This document shows, in pieces, positions 6,903 through 49,471 of a stretch of DNA of 64,000 nt. A program made the translations under genes and the position numbers. Within the stretch, counting starts at the first letter, position 1, and each line of letters starts with the position of its first letter. The notes beneath the pieces were generated by a model. It saw only the letters and a list, made by a program, of their open reading frames with translations, searched no databases and had not been told where the DNA came from. Location of the stretch: contig JAXHVB010000018.1 of NCBI GenBank assembly GCA_034189125.1, positions 775-64,774 of the forward strand, written 5' to 3'. Source of the stretch: Pseudomonadota bacterium (GTDB lineage Bacteria > Pseudomonadota > Gammaproteobacteria > Pseudomonadales > UBA5862).

Positions 6903-7538
6903 ATGACTGTGCGACGCACGTTGAGACTGGGACTGGTGGCTGCCGCGGTGGCCGTGCTAAGCGCGTGCAGCTCAGGGCTGCAAACCCTGCCGTCCGCGAC
7001 GCTGCGCCCATCGATCAATGTGGTTCAACAGGACTACGACTACTTGATCGGCCCCGGTGACAGCCTGCAGATTTTCGTTTGGAACAACCCCGAGGTGTCC
7101 ATGGGGGTCACCGTGCGGCCTGATGGAAAGATCAGCACGCCGTTGGTTGAGGACCTTGAAGTCAGCGGCATCACACCGACGGAAATGGCGCGCAAAGTTG
7201 AGGTGGTGCTCAGCCGGTACATCAAGGACCCCATCGTTACAGTCATCGCCGGTGGGTTCATTGGACCCTACGCGGAGCAGGTGCGCATCATCGGCGCTGC
7301 CAGTGCGCCCCAGTCGCTTCCCTACCGTGAGCACATGACAGTGCTGGATGTGATGATCGCCGTCGGAGGGTTGACGGACTTTGCCGCTGGCAACAGCACG
7401 CGGCTCATCCGCATTGAGGATGGGGCGCAGCAAGAGTACCGCGTTCGCTTGGAGGACCTGGTGCGCGATGGGGACATCAGCGCCAATGTGGACCTGAAGC
7501 CAGGTGACATCCTGATCATTCCTGAAGCCTGGTTTTGA
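6903..7538 (+). CDS. polysaccharide export outer-membrane lipoprotein (Wza-like, PEP-CTERM-locus export protein)
   Basis: ATG at 6903 gives MTVRRTLRLGLVAAAVAVLSAC with a lipobox LSAC. Poly_export motifs are present (YLIGPGDSLQIFVW, PDGKISTPL, GDILIIP). An SD-like AGGGGA lies upstream. Confidence 0.85.
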   Translation: MTVRRTLRLGLVAAAVAVLSACSSGLQTLPSATLRPSINVVQQDYDYLIGPGDSLQIFVWNNPEVSMGVTVRPDGKISTPLVEDLEVSGITPTEMARKVEVVLSRYIKDPIVTVIAGGFIGPYAEQVRIIGAASAPQSLPYREHMTVLDVMIAVGGLTDFAAGNSTRLIRIEDGAQQEYRVRLEDLVRDGDISANVDLKPGDILIIPEAWF

Positions 7539-7641
7539 CCCCGGTGCTTGTTGGTGGCGCGCAATGTTGCCTGTGGATGCGCCTGTGGTCAGACACAAAC
7601 TTTCAACCCCTTGAACACTGAGCAGCCTGCGGAAGGACGCG

Positions 7642-9189
7642 ATGCAAGAACAGCTTGAGTTGGTGCTTTCCTATGCCCGGGGCGTCTGGAAACGGCGGTG
7701 GTGGGTATTGGCGATCGCGTGGCTGGTCGCCGTGGTCGGTTGGGTGTTCGTGCAGCGGCTGCCGGATGAATACGAATCGAGTGCGCGGGTGTACGTGGAC
7801 ACCCAAAGTCTGCTCAAGCCGCTGCTGCGTGGACTCACCATTCAAATGGACGTGGGTCAGGAAATTCGTCTGATGGAGCGAACCCTGCTCAGTCGACCCA
7901 ACCTTGAAAAAATCGTGCGGATGACCGATCTGGACCTGGCGGCGACCACTGACGTGGAGTATGAGGCCCTGCTCAACCGCCTGAAGGGCAACATCGAGAT
8001 GTCCAAAGACAGCCGCCAAAACCTGTATTCGATCTCCTACTCGGACTCCGACCCAGAGCAGGCGAAGCGGGTGGTTCAAGCGGTGGTGACAACCTTCATC
8101 GAAAACACCATCGGCGAGCGCCGCGACAGCACGGCGACGGCCAGTGCGCAGCGCTTTCTGGACAAACAGATCAGCGAATACGAGCAGCGCCTGCGCGAAT
8201 CCGAGGCCCGGCTCAAGGAGTTCAAGCAGAACAATGTGGCCTTTATGTCAGGGTCAGGTGGCTATTTCCAACAGCTGCAGAATGCCCAAACGCAGCTCGA
8301 GACCGCCCGGCTGGAACTGAAGGAAGCCGAGGAGCGGCGCGACTCGATTCTGTGGCAACTGGAAAACGAAGAATCGGAAGACCTGCTGATGCCGGACTTT
8401 GGCCTGGGCTCGGGCGCTTCGGTCGCCACCCCGTACGATGGGCGCATCGAAAACCTCAACACCCAGCTCGATTCCATGTTGCTGCGGTACACCGAGCAGC
8501 ACCCGAGCGTCATTGAGTTGCGCCGCACCCTGGCGGAGTTGGAGAAACTGCGTGACGAGGAGGTTGCCCGCGCAACTTCGGCGGACCTCTCACCCAATGC
8601 GGATGACCGCGGGCCTTTTTATCAGCAGTTGCGATTGGCGCTCTCCCAAGCCGAGGCGACAGTGGCTTCGCTGACCGCCCGGGTGGCCAATTTCCAATCG
8701 AAAGCCGAGGCACTGCAGGCCAAGGTCGATACGGTGCCGGAAATCGAGGCCCAACTGACCGCTCTAAACCGGGACTACGGCATCACCAAGACCAAGTATG
8801 AGGAGCTGCTGAACCGGCGCGAGTCTGCACTGATGTCGCAGCGGGTCGAGGAAGATGTCAATGACATTCAGTTTCGCGTCATCGACCCACCCCGTGTTTC
8901 TGCAACGCCAACTGGACCCAATCGACCGCTGCTGATGGCCGGCGTGCTGGGTGTTGGCCTGGTGATCGGAGGCGGATTGGCCACCCTGTTTTCACTGCTC
9001 CGGCCCACGTTTACGAGCACCCTGCTACTTGGGCAAATCACAGGCGTGCAGGTGCTGGGGACGGTGTCCTACCAAGTCGCTACGGGAGAGGCGCGTCGAC
9101 AACACCGCTTGATGCTGGCTTTTTGGGGGGGGACGCTGATGCTGCTTGCGGCCTACTGCGCACTGGTTGCCTACAACCTGTTTTTGTAA
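7642..9189 (+). CDS. polysaccharide chain-length determinant (PCP, PEP-CTERM-locus subfamily; kinase-less half of a split PCP-2)
   Basis: 515 aa with an N-terminal TM (WWVLAIAWLVAVVGWVF), a long coiled-coil periplasmic region and a C-terminal TM pair. The Wzz-like segment YESSARVYVD is present. RBS GGAAGGA at 7631. Confidence 0.85.
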   Translation: MQEQLELVLSYARGVWKRRWWVLAIAWLVAVVGWVFVQRLPDEYESSARVYVDTQSLLKPLLRGLTIQMDVGQEIRLMERTLLSRPNLEKIVRMTDLDLAATTDVEYEALLNRLKGNIEMSKDSRQNLYSISYSDSDPEQAKRVVQAVVTTFIENTIGERRDSTATASAQRFLDKQISEYEQRLRESEARLKEFKQNNVAFMSGSGGYFQQLQNAQTQLETARLELKEAEERRDSILWQLENEESEDLLMPDFGLGSGASVATPYDGRIENLNTQLDSMLLRYTEQHPSVIELRRTLAELEKLRDEEVARATSADLSPNADDRGPFYQQLRLALSQAEATVASLTARVANFQSKAEALQAKVDTVPEIEAQLTALNRDYGITKTKYEELLNRRESALMSQRVEEDVNDIQFRVIDPPRVSATPTGPNRPLLMAGVLGVGLVIGGGLATLFSLLRPTFTSTLLLGQITGVQVLGTVSYQVATGEARRQHRLMLAFWGGTLMLLAAYCALVAYNLFL

Positions 9190-9254
9190 CGCCCCGCCAT
9201 GGCCCTTGAGTCGTTGCACCCCGTACTGCTGGACCCACCATTGGAATCGCCCGT

Positions 9255-10085
9255 ATGGACACCATAGAGAAAGCACTGCAAAAGTTTGATCAAGCCCCCG
9301 GTGTGCCAGGTGCGGACCGAAACAGCCCGCCGCCGGATGGTGCAACCGCGCTGTCCTCGCGTTCAAGGGCGGAGATCAATTTCGACCAGCTGAGGGCGGA
9401 GGGGCTGCTGGTTCCCGACGATACGCGCACCCAGCTCAAGGAAGAGTTCCGTCACATCAAGCGCCCATTGCTGAAAAAACTGGCTGCCAACAGCGCGAAT
9501 GGCCGAACCCAGCACCGCAACATTGTGATGGTGACCAGTGCCCGTCCAGGAGAAGGAAAAACCTACAATGCCATCAATCTGGCACTGAGTGTCGCAGAAG
9601 AGCGAAACCGCCGTGTTCTGCTGATCGACGCGGATGTGTTGAAGCCGTCTGTTGGCAGGAAGCTCGGGCTGGAGGAGACCCGTGGCTTGGTGGATTACCT
9701 CACCGGTGAAGCGCAAGGACTCAGGGATCTGTTGCTCAAGACCAACATTCCGCAGTTTACCGTTATGCAATCCGGCAAACGGCACCACCTGACCACGGAA
9801 CTTCTTGCCAGTGACCGCATGCGGCAGTTGATCGACGAACTCGCGCAGCGGTACTCCGACCGCGTGGTGGTGTTCGACTGCCCACCGCTGCTCAGCACCA
9901 CGGAGGCGAGCGTGCTGGTGCAGTTGGCTGGTCAGGTGGTGATGGTGGTGGCCGAAGGCGAAACGACCCACTCCGAGGTCAACAAGTCGCTCGCCCTGAT
10001 TGGTTCCAAGACCGATGTCGGGGTGGTGTTGAACAAAAGCCGGGTTGGGCACGACGGGTACGGCTATTACTACTATGGGTCCTGA
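9255..10085 (+). CDS. chain-length-determinant tyrosine autokinase (BY-kinase, PEP-CTERM-locus subfamily)
   Basis: Walker A SARPGEGKT, Walker A' VLLIDADV and Walker B VVVFDCPP. The C-terminal Tyr cluster GYGYYYYGS has 6 Tyr in the last 9 residues. Confidence 0.85.
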   Translation: MDTIEKALQKFDQAPGVPGADRNSPPPDGATALSSRSRAEINFDQLRAEGLLVPDDTRTQLKEEFRHIKRPLLKKLAANSANGRTQHRNIVMVTSARPGEGKTYNAINLALSVAEERNRRVLLIDADVLKPSVGRKLGLEETRGLVDYLTGEAQGLRDLLLKTNIPQFTVMQSGKRHHLTTELLASDRMRQLIDELAQRYSDRVVVFDCPPLLSTTEASVLVQLAGQVVMVVAEGETTHSEVNKSLALIGSKTDVGVVLNKSRVGHDGYGYYYYGS

Positions 10086-11694
10086 GTCCCGGGAGCAGAC
10101 GCCCGGTTTCTATCTTCGCTGCCTTTGTGTTTGGTTGTTTGGGGTCGTCCTGAGCGGCGGCGTGAACGCTGCGGACTGGGAGCGTCAGGCCCGACTCAAC
10201 CTGCAGGCGATCTACACCGACAACATCGAACGGTCGGCGACCGGGGAAACCGGCGAATTGGTTGGCGTTGTTCGACCGGGTCTTAGCGCATCAGCCAACG
10301 GCGCTCGATTGCGCTTTGGGGCGGACTACGCGCTGACCCATTCCTTTCACGCCGACGACAGCGACCGGGACCGCACCTACCACCAGTTGGATGGCTTCGC
10401 AGAGCTCGAATTGGTGGAAGACCACCTGTTTTTTGATCTCGATGCGGCTGCGTCTCAGCAGCTCATCGACGCCCAGGCCGCTGCTGGAGTCGACCTGGTT
10501 GCAGGCAACACGGGCAACATCGCCACTGCCTGGCGACTGAGTGGTGGCCCCCGGTGGCGCCAACGCCTGGGCGGTTACGGCCTCGCCCAGGCCGCCTACA
10601 CCTACAGCGTTGTGGACTATTCGGACGGCCTCAATGGCAGTACCGGCGGGGTGTTCACTGCATCACTCGACAGCGGTGCGCGCACCTACCCGGTTTTCTG
10701 GAACCTGAGCTACCTCAATGAGTCGTTGGACTACGAACAAGGCGCCGACCGTGACCGCAGCCGCGAGCACGGTGAGGTGACGCTGGGCACGCGGGTCACG
10801 GCCTCGACCTATGTGTCTGGCACCTATGGATTCGACCGCCGCGACCTGCTGGATACCAATGGCCGCTCGGCGCCCGACAATGACTTCTGGCGCCTGACTG
10901 CTGGCTGGAACCCCAGTTCGAAAACCGACCTCTCGGTGTACCACCAAGAGCGGGATTTCAAGAGCGCTGCCATTGCAGCGGATGCCGAATCGAGTTTCTG
11001 GGGTGCCAACGCACGCTGGTCACCCAACCCGCGGTGGTCCTTGAACGCCGGATATGGCAATGACTTTTACGGCGACACCTACAACCTTGGCATCTTCCAT
11101 CGATTGCGGCGGGTGAGCTGGTCCCTTGAGCACACGGAGGAACTCACCAACGCCCGGGCTGTGCTGTTGGACGACGCCTTGATCGGTTTTCTGATCTGTC
11201 CGATCGGCGCTTTGGATTTGACCAGTTGCCGGTTTCCTGCTCCGGGCGAGGTTCCGGCACCTGGCAGCGGGGAAGAGTTGGTTGGCATTGTCGGCACTGT
11301 GCCGAGTTTGGTCGAGGACGACTTCGTGCAGCGCAGCACCAGGTTCAGCTGGGCCTACCGGCGCGCAAAATCGACCTGGACCCTGGGGCTGTTCCAAATC
11401 GATCGAGAGGCCTTTGCAGCGGATGACCTCGGGCGCGACCGTGGTGCCTCGCTCGGGTGGTGGTGGCGGGTCGGTCAGCGGTCTACACTCGAATTGGGCG
11501 CCAACCACGTCAAAAAGCAATTCCCGGTCTCGCCGACACTGGAGGAGCGCCGATACCGCATGGGTTGGCGCCGCACCTCGGGGCGCGGGGTCGACTGGTC
11601 CCTGTTGGGGGAGCGCATTGAGGGTGAGCGTGTGGGCGGTGCCGAATTCACCGAACACCGCGTCACCGCTTCAGTAACCGTACGAACTCGGTGA
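10075..11694 (+). CDS. PEP-CTERM-system-associated outer-membrane beta-barrel protein (uncharacterised family)
   Basis: ATG at 10075 overlaps the kinase stop. A signal-like N-terminus (LCVWLFGVVLSGGVNAADW) is followed by alternating beta-strand-like sequence rich in Y/W/G/D/R. Its position is conserved after the tyrosine kinase in XrtA loci (recalled). Confidence 0.65.
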   Translation: MGPESREQTPGFYLRCLCVWLFGVVLSGGVNAADWERQARLNLQAIYTDNIERSATGETGELVGVVRPGLSASANGARLRFGADYALTHSFHADDSDRDRTYHQLDGFAELELVEDHLFFDLDAAASQQLIDAQAAAGVDLVAGNTGNIATAWRLSGGPRWRQRLGGYGLAQAAYTYSVVDYSDGLNGSTGGVFTASLDSGARTYPVFWNLSYLNESLDYEQGADRDRSREHGEVTLGTRVTASTYVSGTYGFDRRDLLDTNGRSAPDNDFWRLTAGWNPSSKTDLSVYHQERDFKSAAIAADAESSFWGANARWSPNPRWSLNAGYGNDFYGDTYNLGIFHRLRRVSWSLEHTEELTNARAVLLDDALIGFLICPIGALDLTSCRFPAPGEVPAPGSGEELVGIVGTVPSLVEDDFVQRSTRFSWAYRRAKSTWTLGLFQIDREAFAADDLGRDRGASLGWWWRVGQRSTLELGANHVKKQFPVSPTLEERRYRMGWRRTSGRGVDWSLLGERIEGERVGGAEFTEHRVTASVTVRTR

Positions 11695-11700
11695 CGGATC

Positions 11701-12750
11701 ATGTACGAATCTTTTTATCAGTACAGTGCCAAGCCGTTCCAGGTGAGCCCGGACCCGCGGTTTTTTTTCGCCAGCAAAGGCCACAAGCGCGCGATGTCCT
11801 ACCTGCGCTACGGCCTGAGTCAGGGCGAGGGCTTTGTGGTCATCACCGGAGGGGTGGGGACGGGTAAGACCACCCTGATCCGCAGCCTGTTCAGCGATCT
11901 GGACGCGGCTGATCTGCTTGCCGCGCAGTTGGTGAGCTCCAATTTGCAGGCGGACGACCTGTTGCAAATGATCTCTGCGGCCTTTGATCTACCTCGCGAA
12001 GGGCGCTCCAAGGGTGAATTGCTCAACCAGTTTGAGGCCTTTCTGCGCCAGGCGGACCGCGAGGGGAAGCGGGTGCTGCTGGTGGTCGACGAAGCGCAGA
12101 ACCTGCCGGCCAGTACGGTGGAAGAGCTCCGGATGCTGTCGAACTTTCAGGTTGAGAACCGGCCGCTGCTGCAGAGTTTTCTGCTCGGACAGGAAGAGTT
12201 TCGCGGGCTGGTGCAGTCTCCCCAAATGGAGCAACTGCGCCAGCGCATCATTGCGTCTTGTCACTTGCAACCCCTGGATCAGGTTGAAACCCGCGGCTAC
12301 ATCGAGCACCGACTGCAGCGGGTGGGCTGGGCGGGCACCAACCCAGCGATCAGCGACGATGCATTCGATGCCATTCACGCCATCAGCCAGGGTGTACCGC
12401 GGCGGATCAACACCTTTTGTGATCGGCTGCTGCTGTATGGTTTTCTGGAAGAACTTGAATGCCTTGATGCCGATGCCGTGGATGTGGTGCGCCGCGAGGT
12501 TTTGGCAGAGCAGCCCAGCGCGCCCAGGGCGGCGGCGTCGATCGCCGCTGCCGATGACGCCTGGGACGAGGGCGAAGAAGACCAGCAGGTCCCGACGCTG
12601 ACGGTGCCCCGGCACCAACGTGCGCCCGTCACCGAACTTGAAAAACGGGTCGCTGACCTTGAGTACGTCATTGAAGCGCTCGAGAAAAATTTCGAACGCA
12701 AAGTGAGCCTGCTGAAGAGCGTGGTTCAGTCATTAAAGAGCGGGCTGTAG
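11701..12750 (+). CDS. ExeA/GspA-like AAA ATPase (XrtA/PEP-CTERM system-associated ATPase)
   Basis: Walker A GGVGTGKT and Walker B LLVVDEAQNL. The N-terminus MYESFYQYSAKPFQVSPDPRFFF is typical of the ExeA family. The C-terminal tail is acidic and coiled-coil-like. Confidence 0.85.
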   Translation: MYESFYQYSAKPFQVSPDPRFFFASKGHKRAMSYLRYGLSQGEGFVVITGGVGTGKTTLIRSLFSDLDAADLLAAQLVSSNLQADDLLQMISAAFDLPREGRSKGELLNQFEAFLRQADREGKRVLLVVDEAQNLPASTVEELRMLSNFQVENRPLLQSFLLGQEEFRGLVQSPQMEQLRQRIIASCHLQPLDQVETRGYIEHRLQRVGWAGTNPAISDDAFDAIHAISQGVPRRINTFCDRLLLYGFLEELECLDADAVDVVRREVLAEQPSAPRAAASIAAADDAWDEGEEDQQVPTLTVPRHQRAPVTELEKRVADLEYVIEALEKNFERKVSLLKSVVQSLKSGL

Positions 12751-12751
12751 G

Positions 12752-13885
12752 TTGGCCATGACTGCAGGCGGTGCGTTGATTTCTGTGGTAGGCGCTCGGC
12801 CCAATTTCATGAAGATTGCGCCCATTTGCGCCGCTTGGAGTGCTGCACAGACAGACCGTGCCCACCTGCTGGTGCACACGGGTCAACACTACGATGCCAG
12901 CATGAAAGTGCAGTTTTTCGAGCAGCTGGGCATCCCCGAGCCTGACATAGACTTGGGCGTTGGCTCCGGCACCCACGCCATGCAGACCAGTGCGATCATG
13001 CAGCGCTTCGAGCCGGTTCTGGACCAGCACCGGCCCGCTGCGGTGCTGGTGGTGGGGGACGTCAATTCCACCATTGCCTGCGCGCTCACGGCGGTGAAAA
13101 AGGACATTCCGGTCATACACGTTGAAGCGGGGCTGCGCAGCGGTGACCGCAGCATGCCCGAGGAAATCAACCGGGTACTGACCGACCAGGTTTCATCTCG
13201 GTTGTACACCACAGAGCGGGCTGCCCTGGACAATTTGACCCGCGAGGGGATTCGGCCGGACGCCGTCTGTTTCGTCGGCAATGTCATGATCGACACCCTG
13301 CTAACCCACAGCAAGCAGGCGCCCGGCATCGAGGCATTGACCTTGGGTACCGGCGTTCGGGCCGACTCTTCGAATGGCTATGGTCTGGTTACCCTGCACC
13401 GTCCGGCGAATGTGGACGATCCCCAGGTGCTGCGCCGTCTGATCGATGCTCTTTGCAAAGTTGCGCAGCGTCTACCCCTGCTGTTCCCTGTGCATCCGCG
13501 GACTGAGGCGCGCCTGCGTGCCCAGGGCCTTTGGGACCAGGCACAGGCGCACCTGGAGCTGCTGCCTCCACTCGGATACCTGCAAATGGTGGGGGCAATG
13601 CGCGACGCCCGGTTGGTCTTGACCGATTCGGGCGGCATCCAAGAGGAGACCACGGCCCTTGGGGTGCCCTGCCTGACCTTGCGCGACAACACCGAGCGCC
13701 CGATCACTGTGGATCAGGGCACCAACACCTTGGTGGGCCGCGACCCCGAACGCATTCTGGAGGCCGTTGCTCAGGCCCTGGCAGGGGCGGGCAAAGCCGG
13801 TCGTATTCCCGAACTTTGGGACGGCCGGGCCGCCCAGCGCATCCTGGACGATTTGCTTCCTTGGCTTGAGGTGCACGGGGCGTGA
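12752..13885 (+). CDS. wecB: UDP-N-acetylglucosamine 2-epimerase (non-hydrolysing)
   Basis: GARPNFMKIAPI, VHTGQHYD, VVGDVNST, HVEAGLRS, MPEEINR and DSGGIQEE are hallmark WecB motifs. TTG at 12752 or ATG at 12758 could be the start. Confidence 0.9.
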   Translation: MAMTAGGALISVVGARPNFMKIAPICAAWSAAQTDRAHLLVHTGQHYDASMKVQFFEQLGIPEPDIDLGVGSGTHAMQTSAIMQRFEPVLDQHRPAAVLVVGDVNSTIACALTAVKKDIPVIHVEAGLRSGDRSMPEEINRVLTDQVSSRLYTTERAALDNLTREGIRPDAVCFVGNVMIDTLLTHSKQAPGIEALTLGTGVRADSSNGYGLVTLHRPANVDDPQVLRRLIDALCKVAQRLPLLFPVHPRTEARLRAQGLWDQAQAHLELLPPLGYLQMVGAMRDARLVLTDSGGIQEETTALGVPCLTLRDNTERPITVDQGTNTLVGRDPERILEAVAQALAGAGKAGRIPELWDGRAAQRILDDLLPWLEVHGA

Positions 13886-14781
13886 GCCAGCCGACGAACC
13901 AACTTGAACGCATTGCCCACGCCATGACGGTCGACGTCGAGGACTATTTTCAGGTCGCAGCGTTCGAGGGCATGTATCCAGTATCCAGTTGGGACACCAT
14001 CCCCACCCGGGTGGAAGTGAACACCCAGCGCATTTTGGACAACTTCGATCGAGCCGGGGTCCGAGCGACCTTCTTTTGCCTCGGCTGGGTCGCCGAGCGC
14101 TGCGCCGCGCTCATTCGTGAAATCGCCGAGCGCGGCCACGAAGTGGCGAACCATGGTTATGCGCACCAGCGGATCGGTACCCTGACGCAGGTTGAGTTCC
14201 GCGAAGACATCCGGCGGGCCAAGTCGCTGCTCGAGGACACCGCGGGTTGTGCGGTGAAAGGATACAGGGCGCCAAGTTATTCGATCACGCCTGAAACCCA
14301 CTGGGCCCATGAGGAGATCCGCGCTGCCGGACACCTTTACAGTTCCAGTGTCTATCCGGTGCGCCATGACCTCTACGGCATCCCCGATGCCCCGCGGGCG
14401 TCCTACGAGGCCTGCGCCGGTCTCACCGAGGTGCCCATCACCACCCTGCGGTGGGGGGGGAGAAACTGGCCAATTGGCGGTGGAGGGTATTTTCGCCTGC
14501 TGCCTTATCCACTGTACCGCAAGGCGCTGCAGCGATTCGAAGACACCGAGGGCCGCTCCGGGTTGTTCTATTTTCACCCCTGGGAAATCGATGTGGAGCA
14601 GCCCCGCACAGCCGGAGCGCCCTGGCGCAGCCGGTTTCGCCATTACCTGAACCTGGATCGCATGGAGTCCCGCTTACACGCCCTGCTCCGTGATTTTCGC
14701 TGGGACCGCATGGATGAACTGTTTGTACCTGCCGATCCCCCTGGTCCGCAGCATCCGGCGCTGCAGGGAGTGTCGGCCTAA
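13882..14781 (+). CDS. polysaccharide deacetylase (NodB-fold, XrtA-system subfamily)
   Basis: GTG start overlaps the wecB stop (GTGA). Motifs MTVDVEDYF, TFFCLGWVAE, HEVANHGYAH and FHPWE match the PEP-CTERM-locus deacetylase family. Confidence 0.85.
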   Translation: MSQPTNQLERIAHAMTVDVEDYFQVAAFEGMYPVSSWDTIPTRVEVNTQRILDNFDRAGVRATFFCLGWVAERCAALIREIAERGHEVANHGYAHQRIGTLTQVEFREDIRRAKSLLEDTAGCAVKGYRAPSYSITPETHWAHEEIRAAGHLYSSSVYPVRHDLYGIPDAPRASYEACAGLTEVPITTLRWGGRNWPIGGGGYFRLLPYPLYRKALQRFEDTEGRSGLFYFHPWEIDVEQPRTAGAPWRSRFRHYLNLDRMESRLHALLRDFRWDRMDELFVPADPPGPQHPALQGVSA

Positions 14782-15867
14782 ATGGCAGTAGAGCCGGTCC
14801 AAGTGGGTGCGGAGAGCTCGCCTGTCGGTGAACCGATGCCGCTGCGCGTTGAGGCTTTACCGACTGACGGGAATGCGGCATGGAACCGGTTTGTGCAGGA
14901 GCAGGCCGGGGCCACCTTCTTTCACCGGGCTGAGTGGCGCCAGGTCTTGGAGCAGGCCTTTGGCCACCAGGGCCATTACCTGCAATGCCTTCGCGGCGAT
15001 GTGGTGGTGGGGGTGTTGCCCCTGGTCGAAGTCAAGAGCTTGCTGTTTGGGCACTCTCTTATTTCCACACCCTTCTGTGTCTACGGGGGCGCCCTGGGGG
15101 CCGATCCGCAGGTGCAGGACAGGCTGGTTGATGCGGCGGCCGACTTGGCAGAGCAGTTGGGGGTCGACTACCTGGAGCTGCGCAACCTGCAGCGGCAGCG
15201 ACCCGACTGGCCGTGCAAGGACTCGATGTATGTCACCTTTCGTCGGGCGATTGTCGATGACGATGACGCCAACCTGAAGGCGATCCCGCGCAAGCAGCGC
15301 GCGATGGTGCGCAAGGCCCAGCAGACGGGCTTGACGTTCGAGATAGATGCACAATTGGATCGTTTCTACACAGCATACAGCACCAGCGTGCGCAACCTCG
15401 GGACACCGGTGTTCTCGCGCAAGTACTTTTCCACCCTGCAGCAGGTTTTCGGTGAGGACTGTGAGGTTTTGACCGTTTCCCATGAGGGCCAGTTGGTGGC
15501 GAGTGTGCTCAGCTTTTACTTTCGTGACCAGGTCTTGCCCTACTATGGAGGTGGTACCGACCTTGCGCGGGCACTGAAGGGCAATGACTTCATGTACTGG
15601 TCCCTGATGTGTCACGCACAACGCCGGGGGGCGCGTTGGTTTGATTATGGCCGCAGCAAAGTCGATACCGGGCCTTACAGTTTCAAGAAGAACTGGGGTT
15701 TTTCGCCGGAGCCGCTGTACCACGAATACCACCTGGTCAAGGCCAAGGCAGTGCCCGAGGTCAACCCACTCAACCCCAAGTACCGGTTGATGGTTGAGAC
15801 CTGGAAGCGCTTGCCGTTGGGGGTCAGCCAGTGGCTTGGTCCCTGGATCTCGCGGTCCTTGGGTTAG
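14782..15867 (+). CDS. FemAB-family protein (PEP-CTERM-system-associated; aminoacyl/peptidyl-transferase-like GNAT pair)
   Basis: The ATG immediately follows the deacetylase TAA. At 361 aa, the sequence (FFHRAEW, YLELRN, KQRAMVRKA, YYGGG, FKKNWGF) resembles FemAB/BioF2-like acetyltransferase (DUF482-type) proteins conserved at this position in XrtA loci. Confidence 0.8.
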   Translation: MAVEPVQVGAESSPVGEPMPLRVEALPTDGNAAWNRFVQEQAGATFFHRAEWRQVLEQAFGHQGHYLQCLRGDVVVGVLPLVEVKSLLFGHSLISTPFCVYGGALGADPQVQDRLVDAAADLAEQLGVDYLELRNLQRQRPDWPCKDSMYVTFRRAIVDDDDANLKAIPRKQRAMVRKAQQTGLTFEIDAQLDRFYTAYSTSVRNLGTPVFSRKYFSTLQQVFGEDCEVLTVSHEGQLVASVLSFYFRDQVLPYYGGGTDLARALKGNDFMYWSLMCHAQRRGARWFDYGRSKVDTGPYSFKKNWGFSPEPLYHEYHLVKAKAVPEVNPLNPKYRLMVETWKRLPLGVSQWLGPWISRSLG

Positions 15868-20944: not shown

Positions 20945-22047
20945 CCCAACCCCGTTCGATGCTGATCACCGGGGGCGCCGGATTCATCGGCGCCAACTTC
21001 GTCCACCATTGGGCAGCGAAATATCCCGAGCACCGGCTCGTGGTTCTGGATGCCTTAACCTATGCCGGTAACTTGCAGAGCCTTCAGGGGTTGGATGGGC
21101 AACCCAATTACCGGTTTGTGCATGGCTCGATCAACGACCAGCGCTTGGTTGAACAATTGCTGAAGGAGGAGGGCATTGATTGCATCCTGCATTTCGCCGC
21201 TGAAAGCCACGTAGACCGCTCCATCACCGGTCCAGATGCCTTCATCGAGACCAACGTGCTTGGCACCCACGCGTTGCTCAAAGCCGCGCGGGCGGTTTGG
21301 CTTGCCGGCGACGGCAGGCCGCACCGCTTCCACCACGTGTCCACCGATGAAGTGTATGGCACCTTGACGCCCACGGACCCGCCGTTCACTGAATCGACTG
21401 CGTATGCGCCGAATTCGCCCTACGCGGCGAGCAAAGCTGCATCCGACCACCTGGTGCGGGCCTACCACGAGACCTATGGGCTCGAAGTCACCACGAGCAA
21501 CTGCTCCAACAACTACGGCCCCTACCATTTTCCCGAGAAACTCATCCCCCTGTGTTTGATCAACATCCTTTCGGGCAAGCCACTGCCCATCTACGGCGAT
21601 GGGCAACAGGTGCGGGATTGGCTGTACGTCGCCGACCACTGCCGCGGCATCGAACGCGTGCTGGAGGTGGGGCGGTCCGGGCGCACCTACAACATTGGTG
21701 GCCACAACGAAATGGCCAACCTGGACCTCGTGCACAGCCTCTGTGCCCGAGTCGATGCCGCTTTCGCTGAGGCCCCGGAGCTCAGCGAACGCTTTCCCGA
21801 TGCCCCCCCGGCCAGGGGCAAGGCCAGCACCGAGTTGATCACCTTCGTGAAGGACCGCCCCGGCCACGACCGGCGCTACGCAATCGACGCGCGACGCGCG
21901 ACAGAAGAGCTCGGGTTCGTGCCCGCGGAGACCTTCGAGACCGGCATTGCCAAGACCGTTCACTGGTACCTGGGCCATGAAACCTGGTGGCGCAACGTGC
22001 TGAGCGGTGAGTACCGCGACTGGGTCCAGCAGCAGTACGGTTCCTGA
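20941..22047 (+). CDS. rfbB: dTDP-glucose 4,6-dehydratase
   Basis: True start is the ATG at 20941 (ATGA overlap with rfbD). The track ORF from 20338 is an in-frame read-through of rfbD antisense-free sequence. Motifs LITGGAGFIGANF, HFAAESHVDRS and YAASKAASDHL. Confidence 0.95.
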   Translation: MTQPRSMLITGGAGFIGANFVHHWAAKYPEHRLVVLDALTYAGNLQSLQGLDGQPNYRFVHGSINDQRLVEQLLKEEGIDCILHFAAESHVDRSITGPDAFIETNVLGTHALLKAARAVWLAGDGRPHRFHHVSTDEVYGTLTPTDPPFTESTAYAPNSPYAASKAASDHLVRAYHETYGLEVTTSNCSNNYGPYHFPEKLIPLCLINILSGKPLPIYGDGQQVRDWLYVADHCRGIERVLEVGRSGRTYNIGGHNEMANLDLVHSLCARVDAAFAEAPELSERFPDAPPARGKASTELITFVKDRPGHDRRYAIDARRATEELGFVPAETFETGIAKTVHWYLGHETWWRNVLSGEYRDWVQQQYGS

Positions 22048-22056: not shown

Positions 22057-23196
22057 GTGAAGCCGAAGGTTACAATCGCCCACGTCGTGCATCGATTCGA
22101 TATCGGCGGGCTCGAGAACGGCGTCGTCAACCTGATCAATCGGTTGGGGGATGGATACAGTCACCAAGTGATTGCCCTGACCGAGTGCAATCCGGGGTTT
22201 TGTCAGCGCATCTCCCATTCCAATGTGCAATACCATGCCTTGCACAAGCGGGAGGGTCAGGACTGGCGTATGCTTTGGCGCCTGTACCGGTTGTTGCGGA
22301 AGCTGGGGCCGGACATCGTTCATACCCGCAACCTGGCGACACTCGAAGCCGCCGGGGTGGCATGGCTTGCTGGGGTCCCACTGCGGGTGCATGGTGAACA
22401 CGGTTGGGACATGACCGACTTGGACGGGAGCAATGCCCGTTACCAGAGACTGCGCCGGCTGATGGCGCCTTTGATCCATCGCTTCGTCGCACTCTCCTCT
22501 CAAGGTGCAGCCTACCTTGTCGACAACGTCGGCGTTCCCAGGCGCAAGGTCGTGCGCATCATCAACGGCGTTGATGTGGAGCGGTTTCAAGCTGGTCACG
22601 ACCGGGGACGACTGCCGGATGGGTTCGCCCCGGAGGGTACGGTTGTGCTCGGGTCTGTTGGGCGCATTGCAGAGGTCAAAAACCACGTGGCCCTGGCCCG
22701 TGCCTTTGTCTTGGCGCATCGGTTGGCGCCCGCGCAGATGGCGGTGGCTCGCCTGGTCATTGTGGGCGATGGCCCGCAGCGGGGCGCGGTGGAAGCTATA
22801 CTCACAGGCGCAGGCCTCACGGATCGACTGCACTTGGCCGGTGCCCAGTCGGACATACCGGCTTGGATGCGGAGTTTCGACCTGTTCGTTCTGCCGTCTC
22901 TGGCTGAAGGCATCTCCAACACCATCCTCGAGGCCATGGCGGTGGGGCTGCCTGTGGTGGCCACCCAGGTCGGCGGCAACGATGAACTCGTTGCGCCGGG
23001 CGAAACCGGGGTGTTGGTGCCCGCTGGGGACGACTCGGCCCTTGCGAACGCCCTGATCGAGGTGGTTTCGGACCGCGAACTGCGGGCACGTCAGGGAATC
23101 AATGCTCGGCAGCGCGCCGAGCATGCGTTTTCTTTGCAAACGATGGTGGAGCGCTACGCTGCGTTGTACCAGGACCTCGTGGTGGCGCGCGGGTGA
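22057..23196 (+). CDS. GT4 glycosyltransferase (PEP-CTERM/EpsH1-associated sugar transferase, stp2-like)
   Basis: GTG start. IAHVVHRFDIGGLENGVVNLINRL is typical of this subfamily. The GT-B C-terminus is PSLAEGISNTILEAMAVGLPVVATQVGGNDELV. Confidence 0.8.
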   Translation: MKPKVTIAHVVHRFDIGGLENGVVNLINRLGDGYSHQVIALTECNPGFCQRISHSNVQYHALHKREGQDWRMLWRLYRLLRKLGPDIVHTRNLATLEAAGVAWLAGVPLRVHGEHGWDMTDLDGSNARYQRLRRLMAPLIHRFVALSSQGAAYLVDNVGVPRRKVVRIINGVDVERFQAGHDRGRLPDGFAPEGTVVLGSVGRIAEVKNHVALARAFVLAHRLAPAQMAVARLVIVGDGPQRGAVEAILTGAGLTDRLHLAGAQSDIPAWMRSFDLFVLPSLAEGISNTILEAMAVGLPVVATQVGGNDELVAPGETGVLVPAGDDSALANALIEVVSDRELRARQGINARQRAEHAFSLQTMVERYAALYQDLVVARG

Positions 23197-23224: not shown

Positions 23225-25123
23225 ATGTGCGGAATCGCTGGCATTTTTCAGATGGGGGTGGGCGATGCCGTGGATCCGAGCGTTCTCGAACGCATGAACC
23301 AGGCGCAGTTCCACCGTGGTCCGGATGAGGGTGGGTACCACTACGGTCCGGGGCTCGGCCTGGCGCATCGACGGCTTTCGATCATCGACCTTTCCGGAGG
23401 CCAGCAGCCCATGGCCGATCAAGAGGGTCGGGTTGTGGTGGTGTTCAACGGTGAAATTTACAATTTCGCTGAGTTGCGCACCGAGCTGATGGGCCTCGGC
23501 CACCACTTCCGCACCCGCAGTGATACCGAAGTGCTGGTTGAGGGGTGGAAGGCCTGGGGCGAAGCCTTGGTCCAGCGCTTGCGCGGAATGTTTGCCTTTG
23601 CCCTCTGGGACCGGACCGAAGAGACGGTGTTTCTGGCGCGGGACCGGCTGGGCATCAAGCCCCTCTACTATGGCCTCACGGACCGCGGCGCCCTGGTGTT
23701 CGGCTCGGAGCTCAAGGTGGTGCTGGCGCATCCGGGCATTCGCAGGGACCTAGACCCCCAGGCTGTTGAAGAGTATCTGGCGCTGGGGTATGTGCCCGAC
23801 CCGCGCTCGATTCTGAGTACCGTCAAAAAGCTACCCGCAGGCTATCGCCTGCTGTGCCGGAGAAACGATGCGCTGGGCGAGCCCAGGCAGTACTGGGACC
23901 TCCCCTTTGCTCCGGTCGACTCCGGCGATGAACGCCAGCTGTCGGAAGAACTGATTGAACGGTTGCGCGAAGCGGTGCGCATCCGACTGGTCGCCGAAGT
24001 GCCCTTGGGTGCGTTCTTGTCTGGCGGCGTCGATTCCAGTGCAGTGGTCGCGTTGATGGCGCAGCTTCAGTCCGACCCAGTGAACACCTGTTCCATCGGG
24101 TTCGATGTGCCGGAGTTCGACGAGAGCGTTTATGCGCAGCGGGTCGCTCAGCAGTACAATACAGAGCACCACCAGCGCACTGTCAATCCCGATGACTTCG
24201 ACCTGATCGACCAACTGGCCAGTTTGTACGACGAGCCGTTTGCAGACAGTTCTGCATTGCCGACCTATCGGGTGTGCCAGTTGGCTCGTGAACGGGTGAC
24301 AGTCGCGCTCTCTGGCGATGGAGGCGATGAGAATTTCGCTGGATACCGCCGCTACCGCTGGCACATGAATGAGGCCCGCATGCGCGGAGTGCTGCCGCGA
24401 CCGGTGCAGGGGCCAGTCTTTGGCGCACTGGGAAGCCTGTATCCAAAGTTGGACTGGGCACCGCGGTTTCTGCGCGCAAAGAGTACGTTTCAAGCCCTCG
24501 CCCGTGACCCTGTCGCCGGCTACTACAGAAACTTCTGCCTGTTGGTCGACGAGCAGCGTGAGGCCCTCTACAGCGACGCATTCAGGCGCGCGTTACAAGG
24601 GTACAACGCGGTGGAATTGTTTCGTTACCACGCGGCCCGCAGTCCCAGTGATGACCTGTTGTCTCAGGCGCAGTACATCGACTTCAAAACCTACCTGTCC
24701 GGAGACATCCTCACCAAGGTCGATCGCGCCAGCATGGCCCATGCGCTCGAAGTGCGGGTTCCCATCTTGGACCACCAGTTCGTGGAATGGGTCTCGGGGC
24801 TCGCGCCTGCGCTGAAGCTGCGTGGGCAAGAAGGCAAATACCTGTTGAAAAAAGCGCTGGAACCCCACCTGGGCGCAGACGTTCTGTACCGGGACAAAAT
24901 GGGCTTCGCAATCCCCGTCGCGCAATGGTTCAGAGGGCCACTTCGTGATCGTTTGCACAGTGCGCTGACTGGCGGCGTGCTGGCCGACACGGGGTATTTC
25001 AAGACCGAGGCACTGGTGAACCTGTTCGATCAGCATCAAAGCGGGCGCTCGGACCACAGCGCTGCGCTCTGGTCGCTGATGATGTTTGAGTCCTCGCTGC
25101 GCCACTTGCAGGGTGGCCTGTGA
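23225..25123 (+). CDS. asparagine synthase (glutamine-hydrolysing) family amidotransferase, exosortase-A-associated type
   Basis: ATG at 23225 gives MCGIAGIF, the Ntn Cys2 nucleophile. PP-loop AFLSGGVDSS and C-terminal KMGFAIP are present. The track ORF's upstream 41 aa overlap the previous gene. Confidence 0.9.
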   Translation: MCGIAGIFQMGVGDAVDPSVLERMNQAQFHRGPDEGGYHYGPGLGLAHRRLSIIDLSGGQQPMADQEGRVVVVFNGEIYNFAELRTELMGLGHHFRTRSDTEVLVEGWKAWGEALVQRLRGMFAFALWDRTEETVFLARDRLGIKPLYYGLTDRGALVFGSELKVVLAHPGIRRDLDPQAVEEYLALGYVPDPRSILSTVKKLPAGYRLLCRRNDALGEPRQYWDLPFAPVDSGDERQLSEELIERLREAVRIRLVAEVPLGAFLSGGVDSSAVVALMAQLQSDPVNTCSIGFDVPEFDESVYAQRVAQQYNTEHHQRTVNPDDFDLIDQLASLYDEPFADSSALPTYRVCQLARERVTVALSGDGGDENFAGYRRYRWHMNEARMRGVLPRPVQGPVFGALGSLYPKLDWAPRFLRAKSTFQALARDPVAGYYRNFCLLVDEQREALYSDAFRRALQGYNAVELFRYHAARSPSDDLLSQAQYIDFKTYLSGDILTKVDRASMAHALEVRVPILDHQFVEWVSGLAPALKLRGQEGKYLLKKALEPHLGADVLYRDKMGFAIPVAQWFRGPLRDRLHSALTGGVLADTGYFKTEALVNLFDQHQSGRSDHSAALWSLMMFESSLRHLQGGL

Positions 25124-25190: not shown

Positions 25191-26423
25191 ATGAAGATCC
25201 TTCACGTACTCGACCACTCGATTCCGCTGCAAAGCGGCTACACGTTTCGCACCCGCAACATCCTGCGAGAGCAGCGTGCTCTTGGCTGGGACACACACCA
25301 GGTGACAGGGCCCAAGCAACTGAATTGCGCTGTAGAGCAGGAAGAGATTGACGGGCTTTTGTTTTACCGCACCGGCCCTTGTGCCACAGGGCCGGTGCAA
25401 TCTCTGCTGCCAGAGCCTGTGCGTGTCATCCGCCAACTCGAACAGCGCCTCGACGAGGTGATCGCTGCAGTTCAGCCGCAGGTCCTGCACGCGCATTCTC
25501 CAGCGCTCGACGGGGTTGCAGCCCTGCGCGCTGCACGCCGGCACAGGCTGCCGGTGGTGTATGAGTGCCGCGCGTTCTGGGAGGATGCGGCGGTCGACCA
25601 CGGCACCAGCCGGGAGGGTGGGCTGCGGTACCGTTTGACCCGCGCCATGGAAACCTGGGTGTTTCGCCATGCCGATGCAGTGACCACCATTTGTGAAGGC
25701 TTGCGCGCCGAAATTGCCGCGCGGGGCGTCCCGGAGTCACGCATCACGGTGATTCCAAACGCGGTGGACCTCAACCACTTCCAGCGGGCCCCCGAGCAGA
25801 AGCAAGAAGCGACACGGCTGCGCCAGGAACTGGGTCTTGGCGACCACAGAGTACTGGGCTTTTTGGGCTCGTTTTACGCCTACGAAGGCCTGGACTTGGC
25901 CATCGAATCGCTCCAGGCAATCAACGACCCCCGGGTCGTCCTGTTGCTGGTCGGCGGCGGGCCTCAGTCTGAGGCACTTCGCCAGCAGGTGAAGGCGCTG
26001 GGCCTGGAAGACCGCGTCCGGTTCACGGGGCGGGTGGCGCACGAACAAGTGCAACACTACTACGACTTGGTGGATTTGCTCGTCTATCCGCGCAAGTCCA
26101 TGCGCTTGACCGAACTGGTCACACCGCTGAAGCCCCTGGAGGCGATGGCGCAGCACAAACTGGTGTTGGCCTCGGATGTCGGCGGCCACCGGGAGTTGAT
26201 CTGTGACGGCGAAACTGGCTGGCTGTTCGAGGCCGGCAGTGCACAGGCGCTGGCGCGCACAGCAGAACGCGTGCTCGCGCTTCCTGAGCACGAGTGGCAG
26301 CGGGTTCGGAACAATGGACGACAGTACGTAGAAACCGAGCGAAACTGGCCGTTGAGCGTTGCGAAGTACGCCAGCGTGTATGCCGCCGCCACAGCAGACG
26401 AGTCCATCCGTGGCACAGCTTGA
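25191..26423 (+). CDS. GT4 glycosyltransferase (exosortase-A-system-associated type)
   Basis: ATG at 25191 gives MKILHVLDHSIPLQSGYTFRT. The C-terminal GT-B motif is PLKPLEAMAQHKLVLASDVGGHRELI. Confidence 0.8.
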   Translation: MKILHVLDHSIPLQSGYTFRTRNILREQRALGWDTHQVTGPKQLNCAVEQEEIDGLLFYRTGPCATGPVQSLLPEPVRVIRQLEQRLDEVIAAVQPQVLHAHSPALDGVAALRAARRHRLPVVYECRAFWEDAAVDHGTSREGGLRYRLTRAMETWVFRHADAVTTICEGLRAEIAARGVPESRITVIPNAVDLNHFQRAPEQKQEATRLRQELGLGDHRVLGFLGSFYAYEGLDLAIESLQAINDPRVVLLLVGGGPQSEALRQQVKALGLEDRVRFTGRVAHEQVQHYYDLVDLLVYPRKSMRLTELVTPLKPLEAMAQHKLVLASDVGGHRELICDGETGWLFEAGSAQALARTAERVLALPEHEWQRVRNNGRQYVETERNWPLSVAKYASVYAAATADESIRGTA

Positions 26424-27681
26424 GCCGCGCATTTTGGTGTTTTCCTCGCTGTTTCCAAGTGCCGTTCAGCCAGGCGCCGGGCTGTTTATTCGGGAGCGGA
26501 TGTTTCGCGTCGCCCGTGAACTGCCGTTGGTGGTCGTCAGTCCTCAGCCCTATTTTCCCGGGCAGTCGCTGATTCGCCGTCTGCGGCCGGGATATCGATT
26601 GCAGGCGCCGCCGGTTGAGGTGCAGGACGGCATCCAGGTGTATCACCCGAGGTTTTTTTCCCTGCCAGGGCTCGGCCGTCGGTTCGACGCGCTGTCGATG
26701 GCGCTGTGCAGCTACGCCCTGTTGCGCCGGCTGCGCAAGGCGTTCGCATTCGATCTGATCGACGCGCACTTTGCGTACCCGGATGGAGCCGCAGCCGTCC
26801 GCCTGGGCCGCTGGTTTCAGGTCCCGGTCACCGTCACCCTGCGGGGCACTGAAGTGCCCCAGGCGCGCAGTGCCCGGCGCCCTCAGCTGGCGGCCACCCT
26901 GCAACAGGTCACCCGGATCTTCACAGTGTCGGATTCACTGCGCCGTTTGGCGCTGGATTTGGGGGCAGCGGACCACCGGGTGCAGGTGGTGCCCAATGGG
27001 GTCAACGGCAGCCTGTTCTACCCGGTCGACGGGCGTGCCACGCGCCGGACACTGGGAATTGCAGAAGATGCCAAAGTGCTCATCACCGTTGGTGGTCTGG
27101 TGGAGCGCAAGGGGTTCCATCGGGTGATCCAGGTGCTGCCAGAACTGCTGGCGCGGGGCCACGATGTTCAGTACCTGGTGGTTGGTGGTCCCTGCGCAGA
27201 AGGTGACATGGAGGCAGCGCTGCGCGCGCAGGTCGAGCGTCTTGGCCTTGAGGACCGCGTGCATTTTTGCGGTGCCTTGCCTCCAGACCGGCTGCGTGAA
27301 CCCCTGTCCGCAGCCGACCTGTTCGTGCTTTCCAGCCGCAATGAAGGTTGGGCGAATGTGCTGCTCGAGGCGTTGTCCTGCGGGCTGCCGGTGGTGGCAT
27401 CGGATGTGGGCGGGAACGCTGAAGTGATTTGCGACCCCGTGCTCGGGGCCATTGTGCCCTTCGGGGATGAGGCGGCAATGTGCGACGCCATTTCGGCTGC
27501 GCTGGAACAGCGCGGTGGCGCCGCTCAGCGGCTGGCCTATGCCGAGGCCAACCAGTGGGATGCGCGGGTGCGCACCTTGGTGGAGGCGTTCCGCCAGCTT
27601 GTAGGGCCGCAATCCCAAGCCCAGGCTCAAGCCGGAGAGGTCAAGCCCACACCGGGGGTCGAGACCCCGGGACCTGGGTAA
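26410..27681 (+). CDS. GT4 glycosyltransferase (start uncertain: GTG 26410, ATG 26380 or 26359)
   Basis: ILVFSSLFPS and GLFIRERM at the N-terminus, SSRNEGWANVLLEALSCGLPVVASDVGGNAEVI at the C-terminus. GTG at 26410 gives the shortest overlap (14 nt) with the upstream gene. Confidence 0.75.
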   Translation: MAQLEPRILVFSSLFPSAVQPGAGLFIRERMFRVARELPLVVVSPQPYFPGQSLIRRLRPGYRLQAPPVEVQDGIQVYHPRFFSLPGLGRRFDALSMALCSYALLRRLRKAFAFDLIDAHFAYPDGAAAVRLGRWFQVPVTVTLRGTEVPQARSARRPQLAATLQQVTRIFTVSDSLRRLALDLGAADHRVQVVPNGVNGSLFYPVDGRATRRTLGIAEDAKVLITVGGLVERKGFHRVIQVLPELLARGHDVQYLVVGGPCAEGDMEAALRAQVERLGLEDRVHFCGALPPDRLREPLSAADLFVLSSRNEGWANVLLEALSCGLPVVASDVGGNAEVICDPVLGAIVPFGDEAAMCDAISAALEQRGGAAQRLAYAEANQWDARVRTLVEAFRQLVGPQSQAQAQAGEVKPTPGVETPGPG

Positions 27682-27693
27682 CAGGAGACGCCC

Positions 27694-29007
27694 ATGCGTG
27701 ATTTGTTCGTCACCGTTGTGGTTCTTGGCAGTTTGCCGATGATCCTGTTTCGCCCGTACCTTGGCATCCTGATGTGGTCATGGCTTGCGTACATGAATCC
27801 CCACAAGCTCTCCTGGGGGTTTGCGCGCGACTTTCCCTTCGCGATGCTGGTGGCGCTGGTGACCTTGATGGGGCTGCTGCTGGCGACGGAAAGCAAACGG
27901 GTTCCGCGTTCGTCGATCACGGTGTTGCTTGGCGTGTTCACCCTGTGGATGTTGCTGACCACGTTGCAGGCGACCTATCCGCAACTTGCCTGGTACCAGT
28001 GGGACAAGGTGTGGAAGATCATGCTGATGACGTTCGTCATCATCATGATGCTGCAGAGTCGGGCTCGAATCGACGCGCTGATCTGGGTGATGGCCGCTTC
28101 GATCGCGTTCTACGGCATCAAGGGGGGCATTTTTACCCTGACCACAGGCGGTGCCTACGCGGTTTATGGTCCGGATGGAACCTTCATCGGAGGCAACAAC
28201 GAGATTGGTCTGGCGCTCATCATGACCATCCCGTTGCTGCGGTACCTGCAATTGCAGGCGCCCAATCCGGTGCTCAAACGCGTACTGACGCCGGTCATGG
28301 TGCTCTGCTTCATCTCCGTGATTGGTACCCAATCCCGGGGTGCGTTGGTGGCGGTCACGGTGATGCTGGCGTTCTTCATTCTCAAGAGCCGCCGCCGGTT
28401 TGGGTTTTTGTTGCTGCTGGCGATCGTCGCGCCGCTGATTTGGAATTTCATGCCCGATACCTGGCATGACCGAATGGCCACCATCGACGACTACCAGGAA
28501 GACGCCTCTGCCATGGGCCGCATCAATGCGTGGTGGATGGCGTTCAATCTGGCGCAGGCGGAGTTTTTCGGTGGCGGCTTCGAGTGTTTTCGCCGTGGCA
28601 TGTTTCGCCTCTATGCACCCACTCCCTGGGATGTGCACGATGCCCACAGCATCTATTTCGAGGTGCTGGGGGAGCACGGTTTTGTGGGGCTGGCACTGTT
28701 TCTCGGAATAGGGGTGGTGGGTTTGCAAACCGCGCGCTCGATCATTCGTGAAACCAAACACGACCCGGACAAGCGCTGGATGGCTGACCTCGCCGCCATG
28801 CTGCAGGTGAGCCTGATCGGCTATGCTGCGGCGGGCATGTTCCTGGGGCTTGCGTATTTTGACTTCTACTATGCCCTGCTGGCGATCCTGGTGGCAGCCC
28901 GGCAGCTGTTGACGAGCGGCGAGCCCCTGGCGGGGCTGTTGACCCTGCGCAAGCGCACGCCCGAGGCCAGCAGGGAACCTGCCGGTGTGGGTGCTCCGGC
29001 CGTCTGA
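27694..29007 (+). CDS. Wzy/O-antigen-ligase-like polytopic membrane protein (putative O-glycosylation ligase/polymerase, exosortase-A-associated)
   Basis: RBS AGGAGA at 27683. About 10-12 TM helices with a Wzy_C-like segment (GTQSRGALVAVTVMLAFFIL) and a periplasmic loop carrying AHSIYFEVLGEHG. Hand-counted stretches are locally low in GC (~53-55%). Confidence 0.8.
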   Translation: MRDLFVTVVVLGSLPMILFRPYLGILMWSWLAYMNPHKLSWGFARDFPFAMLVALVTLMGLLLATESKRVPRSSITVLLGVFTLWMLLTTLQATYPQLAWYQWDKVWKIMLMTFVIIMMLQSRARIDALIWVMAASIAFYGIKGGIFTLTTGGAYAVYGPDGTFIGGNNEIGLALIMTIPLLRYLQLQAPNPVLKRVLTPVMVLCFISVIGTQSRGALVAVTVMLAFFILKSRRRFGFLLLLAIVAPLIWNFMPDTWHDRMATIDDYQEDASAMGRINAWWMAFNLAQAEFFGGGFECFRRGMFRLYAPTPWDVHDAHSIYFEVLGEHGFVGLALFLGIGVVGLQTARSIIRETKHDPDKRWMADLAAMLQVSLIGYAAAGMFLGLAYFDFYYALLAILVAARQLLTSGEPLAGLLTLRKRTPEASREPAGVGAPAV

Positions 29008-49468: not shown

Positions 49469-49471
49469 CGG

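Follow-up and report, generated by a model that had tools for sequence, protein, structure and literature searches.

The EpsH family of exosortases was described by Haft and co-workers (Haft et al. 2006, PMC1569441) as sharing three invariant motifs, Cys-x-Gly, Asn-x-x-Arg and His-x-x-x-Gly. The same authors defined a PEP-CTERM box, in which motif 1 (17 nt, with TTTACA at its end) is separated by a spacer of 63 nt on average (range 32-92) from motif 2, a sigma-54 element that precedes the start codon by 71 nt on average. Of the 13 genomes in that study, only 3 had prsK/prsR near or adjacent to epsH, and most PEP-CTERM genes were single-gene operons. In Aquincola tertiaricarbonis (PMC9850573) pepA adjoins prsT, and prsK-prsR come after epsB2; mutants with a transposon in prsT, epsB2 or prsK were floc-deficient, and overexpression of pepA kept the exopolysaccharide (EPS) bound to the cell. 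The -24/-12 elements of pepA (TGGCAC/CTGCTT) have been mapped and are RpoN1-dependent, whereas the EPS genes are transcribed independently of RpoN1. According to the account given there of Gao et al. 2018, Zoogloea resiniphila MMB has a floc-formation system of the same type. Here we analyze 64 kb of DNA (positions 1-64000, hereafter the window) on contig JAXHVB010000018.1 of assembly GCA_034189125.1, from an uncultured Pseudomonadota bacterium of the order Pseudomonadales. Its sequence indicates that the region at 6903-29007 is very probably the core of a canonical exosortase A (XrtA)/PEP-CTERM EPS system, with a substrate and the regulators encoded just outside the window ends.

The case for the core rests on profile searches. 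All long open reading frames (ORFs) of the window were scored by hmmscan against NCBIfam models and their curated cut-offs, and the gene starts are those called on near-identical public contigs (Table 1). Every XrtA-system component at 6903-29007 exceeded its cut-off, with sixteen of the 20 genes there assigned to XrtA-system families, and so did all 13 neighborhood models (export, ChnLen, TyrKin, OMP, ATPase, deacetylase, FemAB, stp1/2/3, amidotransferase, O-ligase-like and EpsB_2). A first-pass annotation had read these plus-strand genes as a complete exosortase A/PEP-CTERM EPS core operon, and had named hidden Markov model (HMM) scores of XrtA and its partners as the check on that reading; each gene is present in the order it listed, and the scores uphold the reading. 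Its view of the extent of the system was sound for the core span but too narrow elsewhere, insofar as two TIGR03694 acyltransferases and EpsB_2 (TIGR03013) in the window had been overlooked. Since the intergenic gaps are only -14 to +103 nt, the genes form one tightly packed string, in which rmlACDB stands between xrtA and stp2. A scan of 5600-7700 for sigma-70 promoters and terminators gave results at chance level.

The exosortase itself scored 343.9 bits on TIGR03109, 136 above the cut-off of 208, and fell below the cut-offs of the XrtB, C, D, V and W models. An EpsI domain is fused to it at residues 339-496 (TIGR02914, 70.7 bits against 42.8), where PF11984 matches too. The three family motifs each occur once, as C187-S-G, N229-G-M-R232 and H253-F-I-Y-G257. 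Cys187, singled out in the first-pass annotation, is indeed the cysteine of the sole C-x-G motif and the candidate nucleophile. The same annotation had called the attachment chemistry essentially unproven, in agreement with published work on these systems (PMC9850573, PMC12188702), in which the chemistry is uncharacterized and Cys-dependent cleavage or transpeptidation is described only as predicted.

The DNA beyond the window could be read from other assemblies. The window's exact XrtA, EpsB_2, FAD-oxidase and DUF2878 proteins were found on many contigs from metagenomes and metagenome-assembled genomes (MAGs). Contigs with exact window proteins came from the beach-sand metagenomes of PRJNA260285, ERZ23499083 scaffold_24 (136 kb), GCA_002432625.1, GCA_002408105.1 and GCA_021767605.1, and such proteins recur undisrupted in more than ten assemblies. 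One of these genomes, GCA_002408105.1, had been treated in the literature as a putative OM252 genome and was then left out of that group, as it branched elsewhere. Public contigs matched the window in blastn at 99.65-99.97% identity over 9.7-21.5 kb, and near-identical contigs extend beyond both window ends. The upstream contig L010 is 99.8% identical to the window across 12.6 kb, and the downstream contigs L007 and L008 are mutually consistent and 99.66% identical to it across 12.4 kb. Coordinates outside the window are given as window equivalents, window position 1 being L010 position 5383 and position x of L007 corresponding to window position x + 51604.

On the upstream side the order is fabB-fabA (minus strand), a 923-aa TPR lipoprotein that scores as PrsT, a 318-aa protein and the DUF2878 gene (window 228-899), an arrangement common to four independent assemblies (L010/L032, L030, L031 and L033). 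The 318-aa protein carries a signal peptide and the C-terminal tail VVPEPTSLALMGLGLMGVGFGSRLRARKA, composed of VPEP, a transmembrane (TM) segment and RLRARKA, and 54 nt separate the stop codon of its gene from window base 1. Downstream, two assemblies (L007 and L008) have epsB2, a four-gene minus-strand cassette, prsK, prsR, an APS kinase gene and ManC; prsK-prsR begin about 2.3 kb beyond base 64000. The predicted PrsK, PrsR and PrsT and at least one predicted substrate thus bracket the window. Together the genes form an island of about 74 kb, which runs from prsT and the PEP-CTERM gene through the acyltransferases, the xrtA core, a sulfated/ABC-exported glycan cluster, epsB2 and the HprK-like cassette to prsK-prsR.

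Within the window we found neither substrate nor regulator, as the first-pass annotation had reported. Two six-frame scans of C-terminal tails in the window found none with a PEP motif, a TM segment and a basic end. The sole PEP-like tail returned by the regular expression (31293-31153, minus strand) is spurious, as it belongs to a 46-aa antisense ORF within a glycosyltransferase gene. For an HMM-based check, the last 36 residues of all 607 six-frame stop-to-stop ORFs of at least 60 aa were taken, and the 136 with a hydrophobic stretch were concatenated; none of these 136 window tails matched a PEP-CTERM family at E <= 1. A 40-aa tail used as positive control was recognized by TIGR02595 (27.9 bits, cut-off 16) and by twelve other PEP-CTERM families. 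No scanned window ORF is PrsK, PrsR or PrsT, the only match being that of a small TPR protein at 33204-33896, which was rejected as PrsT on account of its score (24 bits on TIGR02917 against 312) and its length (230 aa against about 900 aa). Since near-identical contigs carry both substrate and regulators just outside, we regard their absence from the window as an artefact of where the window ends.

The regulatory sequences point in the same direction. A 251-nt intergenic region precedes the PEP-CTERM gene and contains a PEP-CTERM box at L010 4168-4274, consisting of TGTCAGATTTTTTTACA, 74 nt, and TGGCATGGCATCTGCT (GG-N10-GC), followed by 98 nt to the ATG. Its motif 1 ends in TTTACA, and GG-N10-GC stands at the published spacing. 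With up to three mismatches, motif 1 is expected by chance 0.01-0.06 times per locus, a figure to be read with caution since the consensus was built partly from these same sites. Judging from the published box and the Aquincola pepA data, PrsK/PrsR together with sigma-54 would control the PEP-CTERM gene through this element. Motif 1 had no match in the whole window at up to three mismatches, and the GG-N10-GC matches in the window are all intragenic and none is accompanied by motif 1. The sequence of the window thus gives no sign that PrsR controls the xrtA operon itself, which is consistent with the RpoN1-independent transcription of EPS genes in Aquincola.

The first-pass annotation had drawn a different conclusion from the missing genes, namely that the XrtA operon stands alone here and that the substrates and PrsK/R/T are dispersed elsewhere in the genome. 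The 64-kb window does lack both, and the survey of Haft and co-workers gives dispersal a general plausibility. However, prsT and the PEP-CTERM gene on one side and prsK-prsR on the other, all close to the window ends on contigs 99.7-99.8% identical to it, contradict this for the regulators and for at least one substrate and make it very unlikely as a whole; the 99.8%-identical contigs also answer the question, raised in the same annotation, of whether the genome encodes any PEP-CTERM protein. It could also be argued that the locus is a conventional Wzy/Wzc-type EPS cluster in which XrtA is a relic or orphan with no sorting role, and that the finding of a single substrate gene speaks for this. 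We consider such a relic likewise very unlikely, given that XrtA retains all three invariant motifs and scores far above its cut-off, that the PEP-CTERM gene is intact with signal peptide, canonical tail and cognate box, that prsK, prsR and prsT are intact as well, and that the exact proteins recur undisrupted across assemblies.

A complete XrtA/PEP-CTERM system around the window is accordingly the reading we favor. Several points nevertheless weigh against it. None of the contigs is 100% identical to the window, and the flanks are those of same-species strains, not provably parts of the same molecule. A single PEP-CTERM substrate was seen in the window and flanking contigs, and others may well be scattered over the rest of the genome, as the genome pattern reported by Haft et al. 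makes plausible. A hydropathy search of the unannotated ORFs recognized no Wzx-type flippase in the window. Finally, the sequence evidence does not bear on the actual chemistry of XrtA.

The components, motifs, signal peptides, lipoboxes and promoter box read from the sequence can be arranged, from what is known of these families, into a putative pathway. EpsB_2 would prime the polyprenyl-phosphate carrier, on which stp1, stp2, stp3 and the extra GT4 would assemble a repeat unit that contains ManNAc (WecB), rhamnose (Rml) and further sugars. The unit would be modified by the deacetylase, the AsnB-type amidotransferase and the FemAB-like enzyme, and polymerized or ligated by the Wzy_C-like protein. 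Export would involve the chain-length determinant, the tyrosine kinase and the Wza-like lipoprotein, along with the outer-membrane protein and the ATPase. PrsK/PrsR and sigma-54 would induce the PEP-CTERM gene via its upstream box, and its product would be exported by Sec, with the C-terminal helix then anchoring it in the inner membrane. XrtA would cut at VPEP through Cys187 and transfer the protein to an acceptor, so that the EPS is tied to the cell, a step that is a hypothesis in every system of this kind. In its gene content this is a textbook XrtA locus, whose apparent oddity vanishes once the DNA past the window ends is read, and the island of about 74 kb could be a compact starting point for rebuilding exosortase A sorting in a heterologous host.

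Table 1. Predicted features of the window and of its flanks, with the scores of the matching models in bits (score / curated cut-off).
Feature	Position in window (or window equivalent)	Strand	Evidence
prsT (923-aa TPR lipoprotein), outside window	-4033 to -1262 (L010 1350-4121)		TIGR02917, 462 / 312
PEP-CTERM gene (318 aa), outside window	-1010 to -54 (L010 4373-5329)		TIGR02595, 22.3-27.9 / 16
Left window edge, intergenic DNA after PEP-CTERM gene	1-227	+	
Exosortase-system-associated acyltransferase (GNAT/FeeM-like), copy 1	4896-5738	-	TIGR03694, 184 / 112; PF13444
Exosortase-system-associated acyltransferase, copy 2	5829-6653	+	TIGR03694, 124 / 112
Wza-like EPS export lipoprotein	6903-7538	+	TIGR03027, 237 / 180; lipobox LSAC
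Chain-length determinant (ChnLen)	7642-9189	+	TIGR03007, 582 / 279
BY-type tyrosine autokinase (TyrKin)	9255-10085	+	TIGR03018, 248 / 231
PEP-CTERM-system outer-membrane protein	10075-11694	+	TIGR03016, 221 / 91
XrtA-system AAA ATPase, ExeA-like	11701-12750	+	TIGR03015, 376 / 325
UDP-GlcNAc 2-epimerase WecB	12758-13885	+	TIGR00236, 309 / 210
XrtA-system polysaccharide deacetylase	13882-14781	+	TIGR03006, 415 / 276
FemAB-family XrtA-system protein	14782-15867	+	TIGR03019, 486 / 260
GT4 glycosyltransferase stp1	15877-17088	+	TIGR03087, 541 / 317
Exosortase A with fused EpsI domain	17085-18617	+	TIGR03109, 344 / 208; TIGR02914, 71 / 43
rmlA-rmlC-rmlD-rmlB, dTDP-L-rhamnose synthesis	18652-22047	+	TIGR01207, TIGR01221, TIGR01214, TIGR01181, all above cut-off
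GT4 glycosyltransferase stp2	22057-23196	+	TIGR03088, 483 / 409
XrtA-system AsnB-type amidotransferase	23225-25123	+	TIGR03108, 1033 / 817
GT4 glycosyltransferase stp3	25191-26423	+	TIGR04063, 604 / 442
Extra GT4, no specific family	26410-27681	+	Sub-threshold GT4 matches only
Wzy_C / O-antigen-ligase-like membrane protein, exosortase A-associated	27694-29007	+	TIGR03097, 531 / 188; about 9 TM segments
Co-directional continuation: sulfotransferase, unknown 389-aa protein, GT2, GT4, small TPR protein	29020-33896	+	PF13469; GT matches; gaps 12 and -4 nt
ABC-exported part of second glycan cluster	40767-52772	-	Wzm/Wzt 49472-51561, WbsX, FkbM methyltransferase, rhamnosyltransferase-like GT2
Trypsin_2 serine protease	58229-59023	+	No specific NCBIfam model matches
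EpsB_2 priming polyprenyl-phosphate sugar-phosphate transferase	61605-63005	+	TIGR03013, 575 / 393
Right window edge, 3' part of NTP_transf_5 gene (last gene of cassette)	63019-64000	-	PF14907
prsK, outside window	66304-68451 (L007 14700-16847)		TIGR02916, 678 / 300
prsR, outside window	68448-69806 (L007 16844-18202)		TIGR02915, 713 / 503

The minus-strand cassette beside prsK lies almost wholly outside the window and continues on L007 at 11415-14379, up to window equivalent 65983. The product of its first gene has 221 aa, a twin-arginine signal and no family match; the other genes encode a PqqD-like chaperone (TIGR04353, 37 bits against 35), an HprK-related kinase A (TIGR04352, 348 against 200) and the NTP_transf_5 nucleotidyltransferase. 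The cassette has a PEP-CTERM box of its own, TGTCGGTAATTTTTACA ... CGGAACAAAACTTGCT (L007 14637-14532, minus strand), with the geometry of the box of the PEP-CTERM gene. We compared five homologues of HprK-related kinase A, a small sample picked solely for long contigs. The cassette is kept in all five of these unrelated genomes, each time with a motif-1-like sequence and then GG-N10-GC before its first gene. In three (L037, L038 and L040) it stands among epsB2, prsK/R/T, PEP-CTERM or XrtA-core genes, and in the remaining two it adjoins Trypsin_2 and EPS genes. The protein encoded by the first gene in the window species can be aligned with its counterparts in L036, L037 and L038, which have in common with it the RR signal, a conserved Cys and motifs farther downstream; the same RR signal, Cys and motif features were judged by eye to be present in that of L040. 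These proteins are about 200 aa long and contain an SGxxSGN motif as well as the conserved Cys. No paper came to light when the literature was searched for HprK-related kinase A, TIGR04352 and TIGR04353.

These observations suggest, tentatively and with doubt outweighing confidence, that the four-gene cassette might be a conserved and undescribed member of the XrtA/PEP-CTERM system under PrsR/sigma-54 control. It could represent a part of exosortase A sorting that modifies proteins post-translationally, for instance by phosphorylating or nucleotidylylating an exported protein that acts with PEP-CTERM proteins or as an acceptor for them. With the same promoter box as the substrate gene, the HprK-like/PqqD-like cassette is possibly an overlooked component of these systems.

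Other genes of the window surround the core. At 228-6653 there are a 5-TM DUF2878 protein, a FAD_binding_4 oxidase, an MMPL/RND transporter and the two TIGR03694 acyltransferases, whose genes are divergent and adjoin the transporter. These genes may make up a module for lipids or N-acyl amino acids that is conserved along with the XrtA system; FeeM/Acetyltransf_5 genes are present in L038 and L040 too. The Trypsin_2 protease, which may be an accessory protease of the XrtA system, adjoins epsB2-xrtA in three Methylococcaceae loci (L014, L016 and L019), and a Trypsin_2 gene adjoins the HprK-like cassette in L036, L038 and L039.

A second glycan cluster occupies 29-61 kb, between the XrtA core and epsB2. 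Its genes encode two sulfotransferases, a GT2-sulfatase fusion, several GT2/GT4 enzymes, WbsX and an FkbM methyltransferase, and also a Wzm/Wzt ABC exporter, a CapK-like ligase, an AsnB-like protein lacking a glutaminase domain, the Trypsin_2 protease and a TviB-like dehydrogenase. An unannotated 773-aa ORF lies at 43017-45338. The Sulfotransfer_3 genes are at 29020-29949 (plus strand) and 38014-39063 (minus strand), the fusion is a 1058-aa protein with GT2 and sulfatase domains (33893-37069, minus strand), and an APS kinase gene directly follows prsR (L007 18747-19379). The combination of sulfotransferases, sulfatase-domain fusion and APS kinase suggests that one polysaccharide made here is sulfated. 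At 52723-58215 the minus strand encodes a formyltransferase, a repeat protein resembling the C-terminal part of squalene-hopene cyclase and a CapK/PaaK-like adenylating ligase, and divergent from these on the plus strand is the AsnB-like protein, with sub-threshold lasso-cyclase/macrolactam-like matches. This group could serve sugar-acid amidation, or be part of a nearby cassette resembling those for ribosomally synthesized and post-translationally modified peptides (RiPPs).

Among species-representative genomes, a collection in which a scan with XrtA did not turn up the window species itself, the closest XrtA locus found belongs to a Pseudomonadales MAG (L013, JAHRWD010000008.1). Its similarity to the window is only moderate (Export 69%, ATPase 60%, FemAB 61% and XrtA 44% identity), and its gene order is that of the window, with rmlC/D/B likewise placed immediately behind xrtA, so that the rml insertion is a trait of the lineage and not unique to the window. 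More widely, the gene order of the core is shared by loci of Rubrivivax, Betaproteobacteria, Sphingobium and Pseudomonadales (L013-L029).

With Aquincola RN12 and Zoogloea MMB the window species shares the same protein families, the position of the PEP-CTERM gene beside prsT and that of epsB2 near prsK-prsR. The PEP-CTERM promoters are closely alike, reading TGGCAT...CTGCT here and TGGCAC...CTGCTT in Aquincola, with an upstream enhancer motif in both, and in neither species is there such a box before the EPS operon. The differences are mainly of arrangement. In the window species a single island holds the large EPS cluster with one of the two satellite clusters on either side, whereas these are separate clusters in Aquincola/Zoogloea; its PEP-CTERM gene lies downstream of prsT and not upstream as in those species; rmlACDB is inserted after xrtA; and the sulfotransferase/Wzm-Wzt glycan cluster and the HprK-like cassette intervene between the core and prsK. 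Its PEP-CTERM protein, too, resembles PepA only weakly (32.6 bits, the cut-off being 80). The system of Haft and co-workers is matched in the EpsH-EpsI fusion, the three motifs, the EPS neighborhood, PrsK/R/T and the geometry of the PEP-CTERM box. Nothing essential separates the window species from that system, and its locus is more consolidated than most; consolidation into one island is somewhat unusual, but it is not new in kind.

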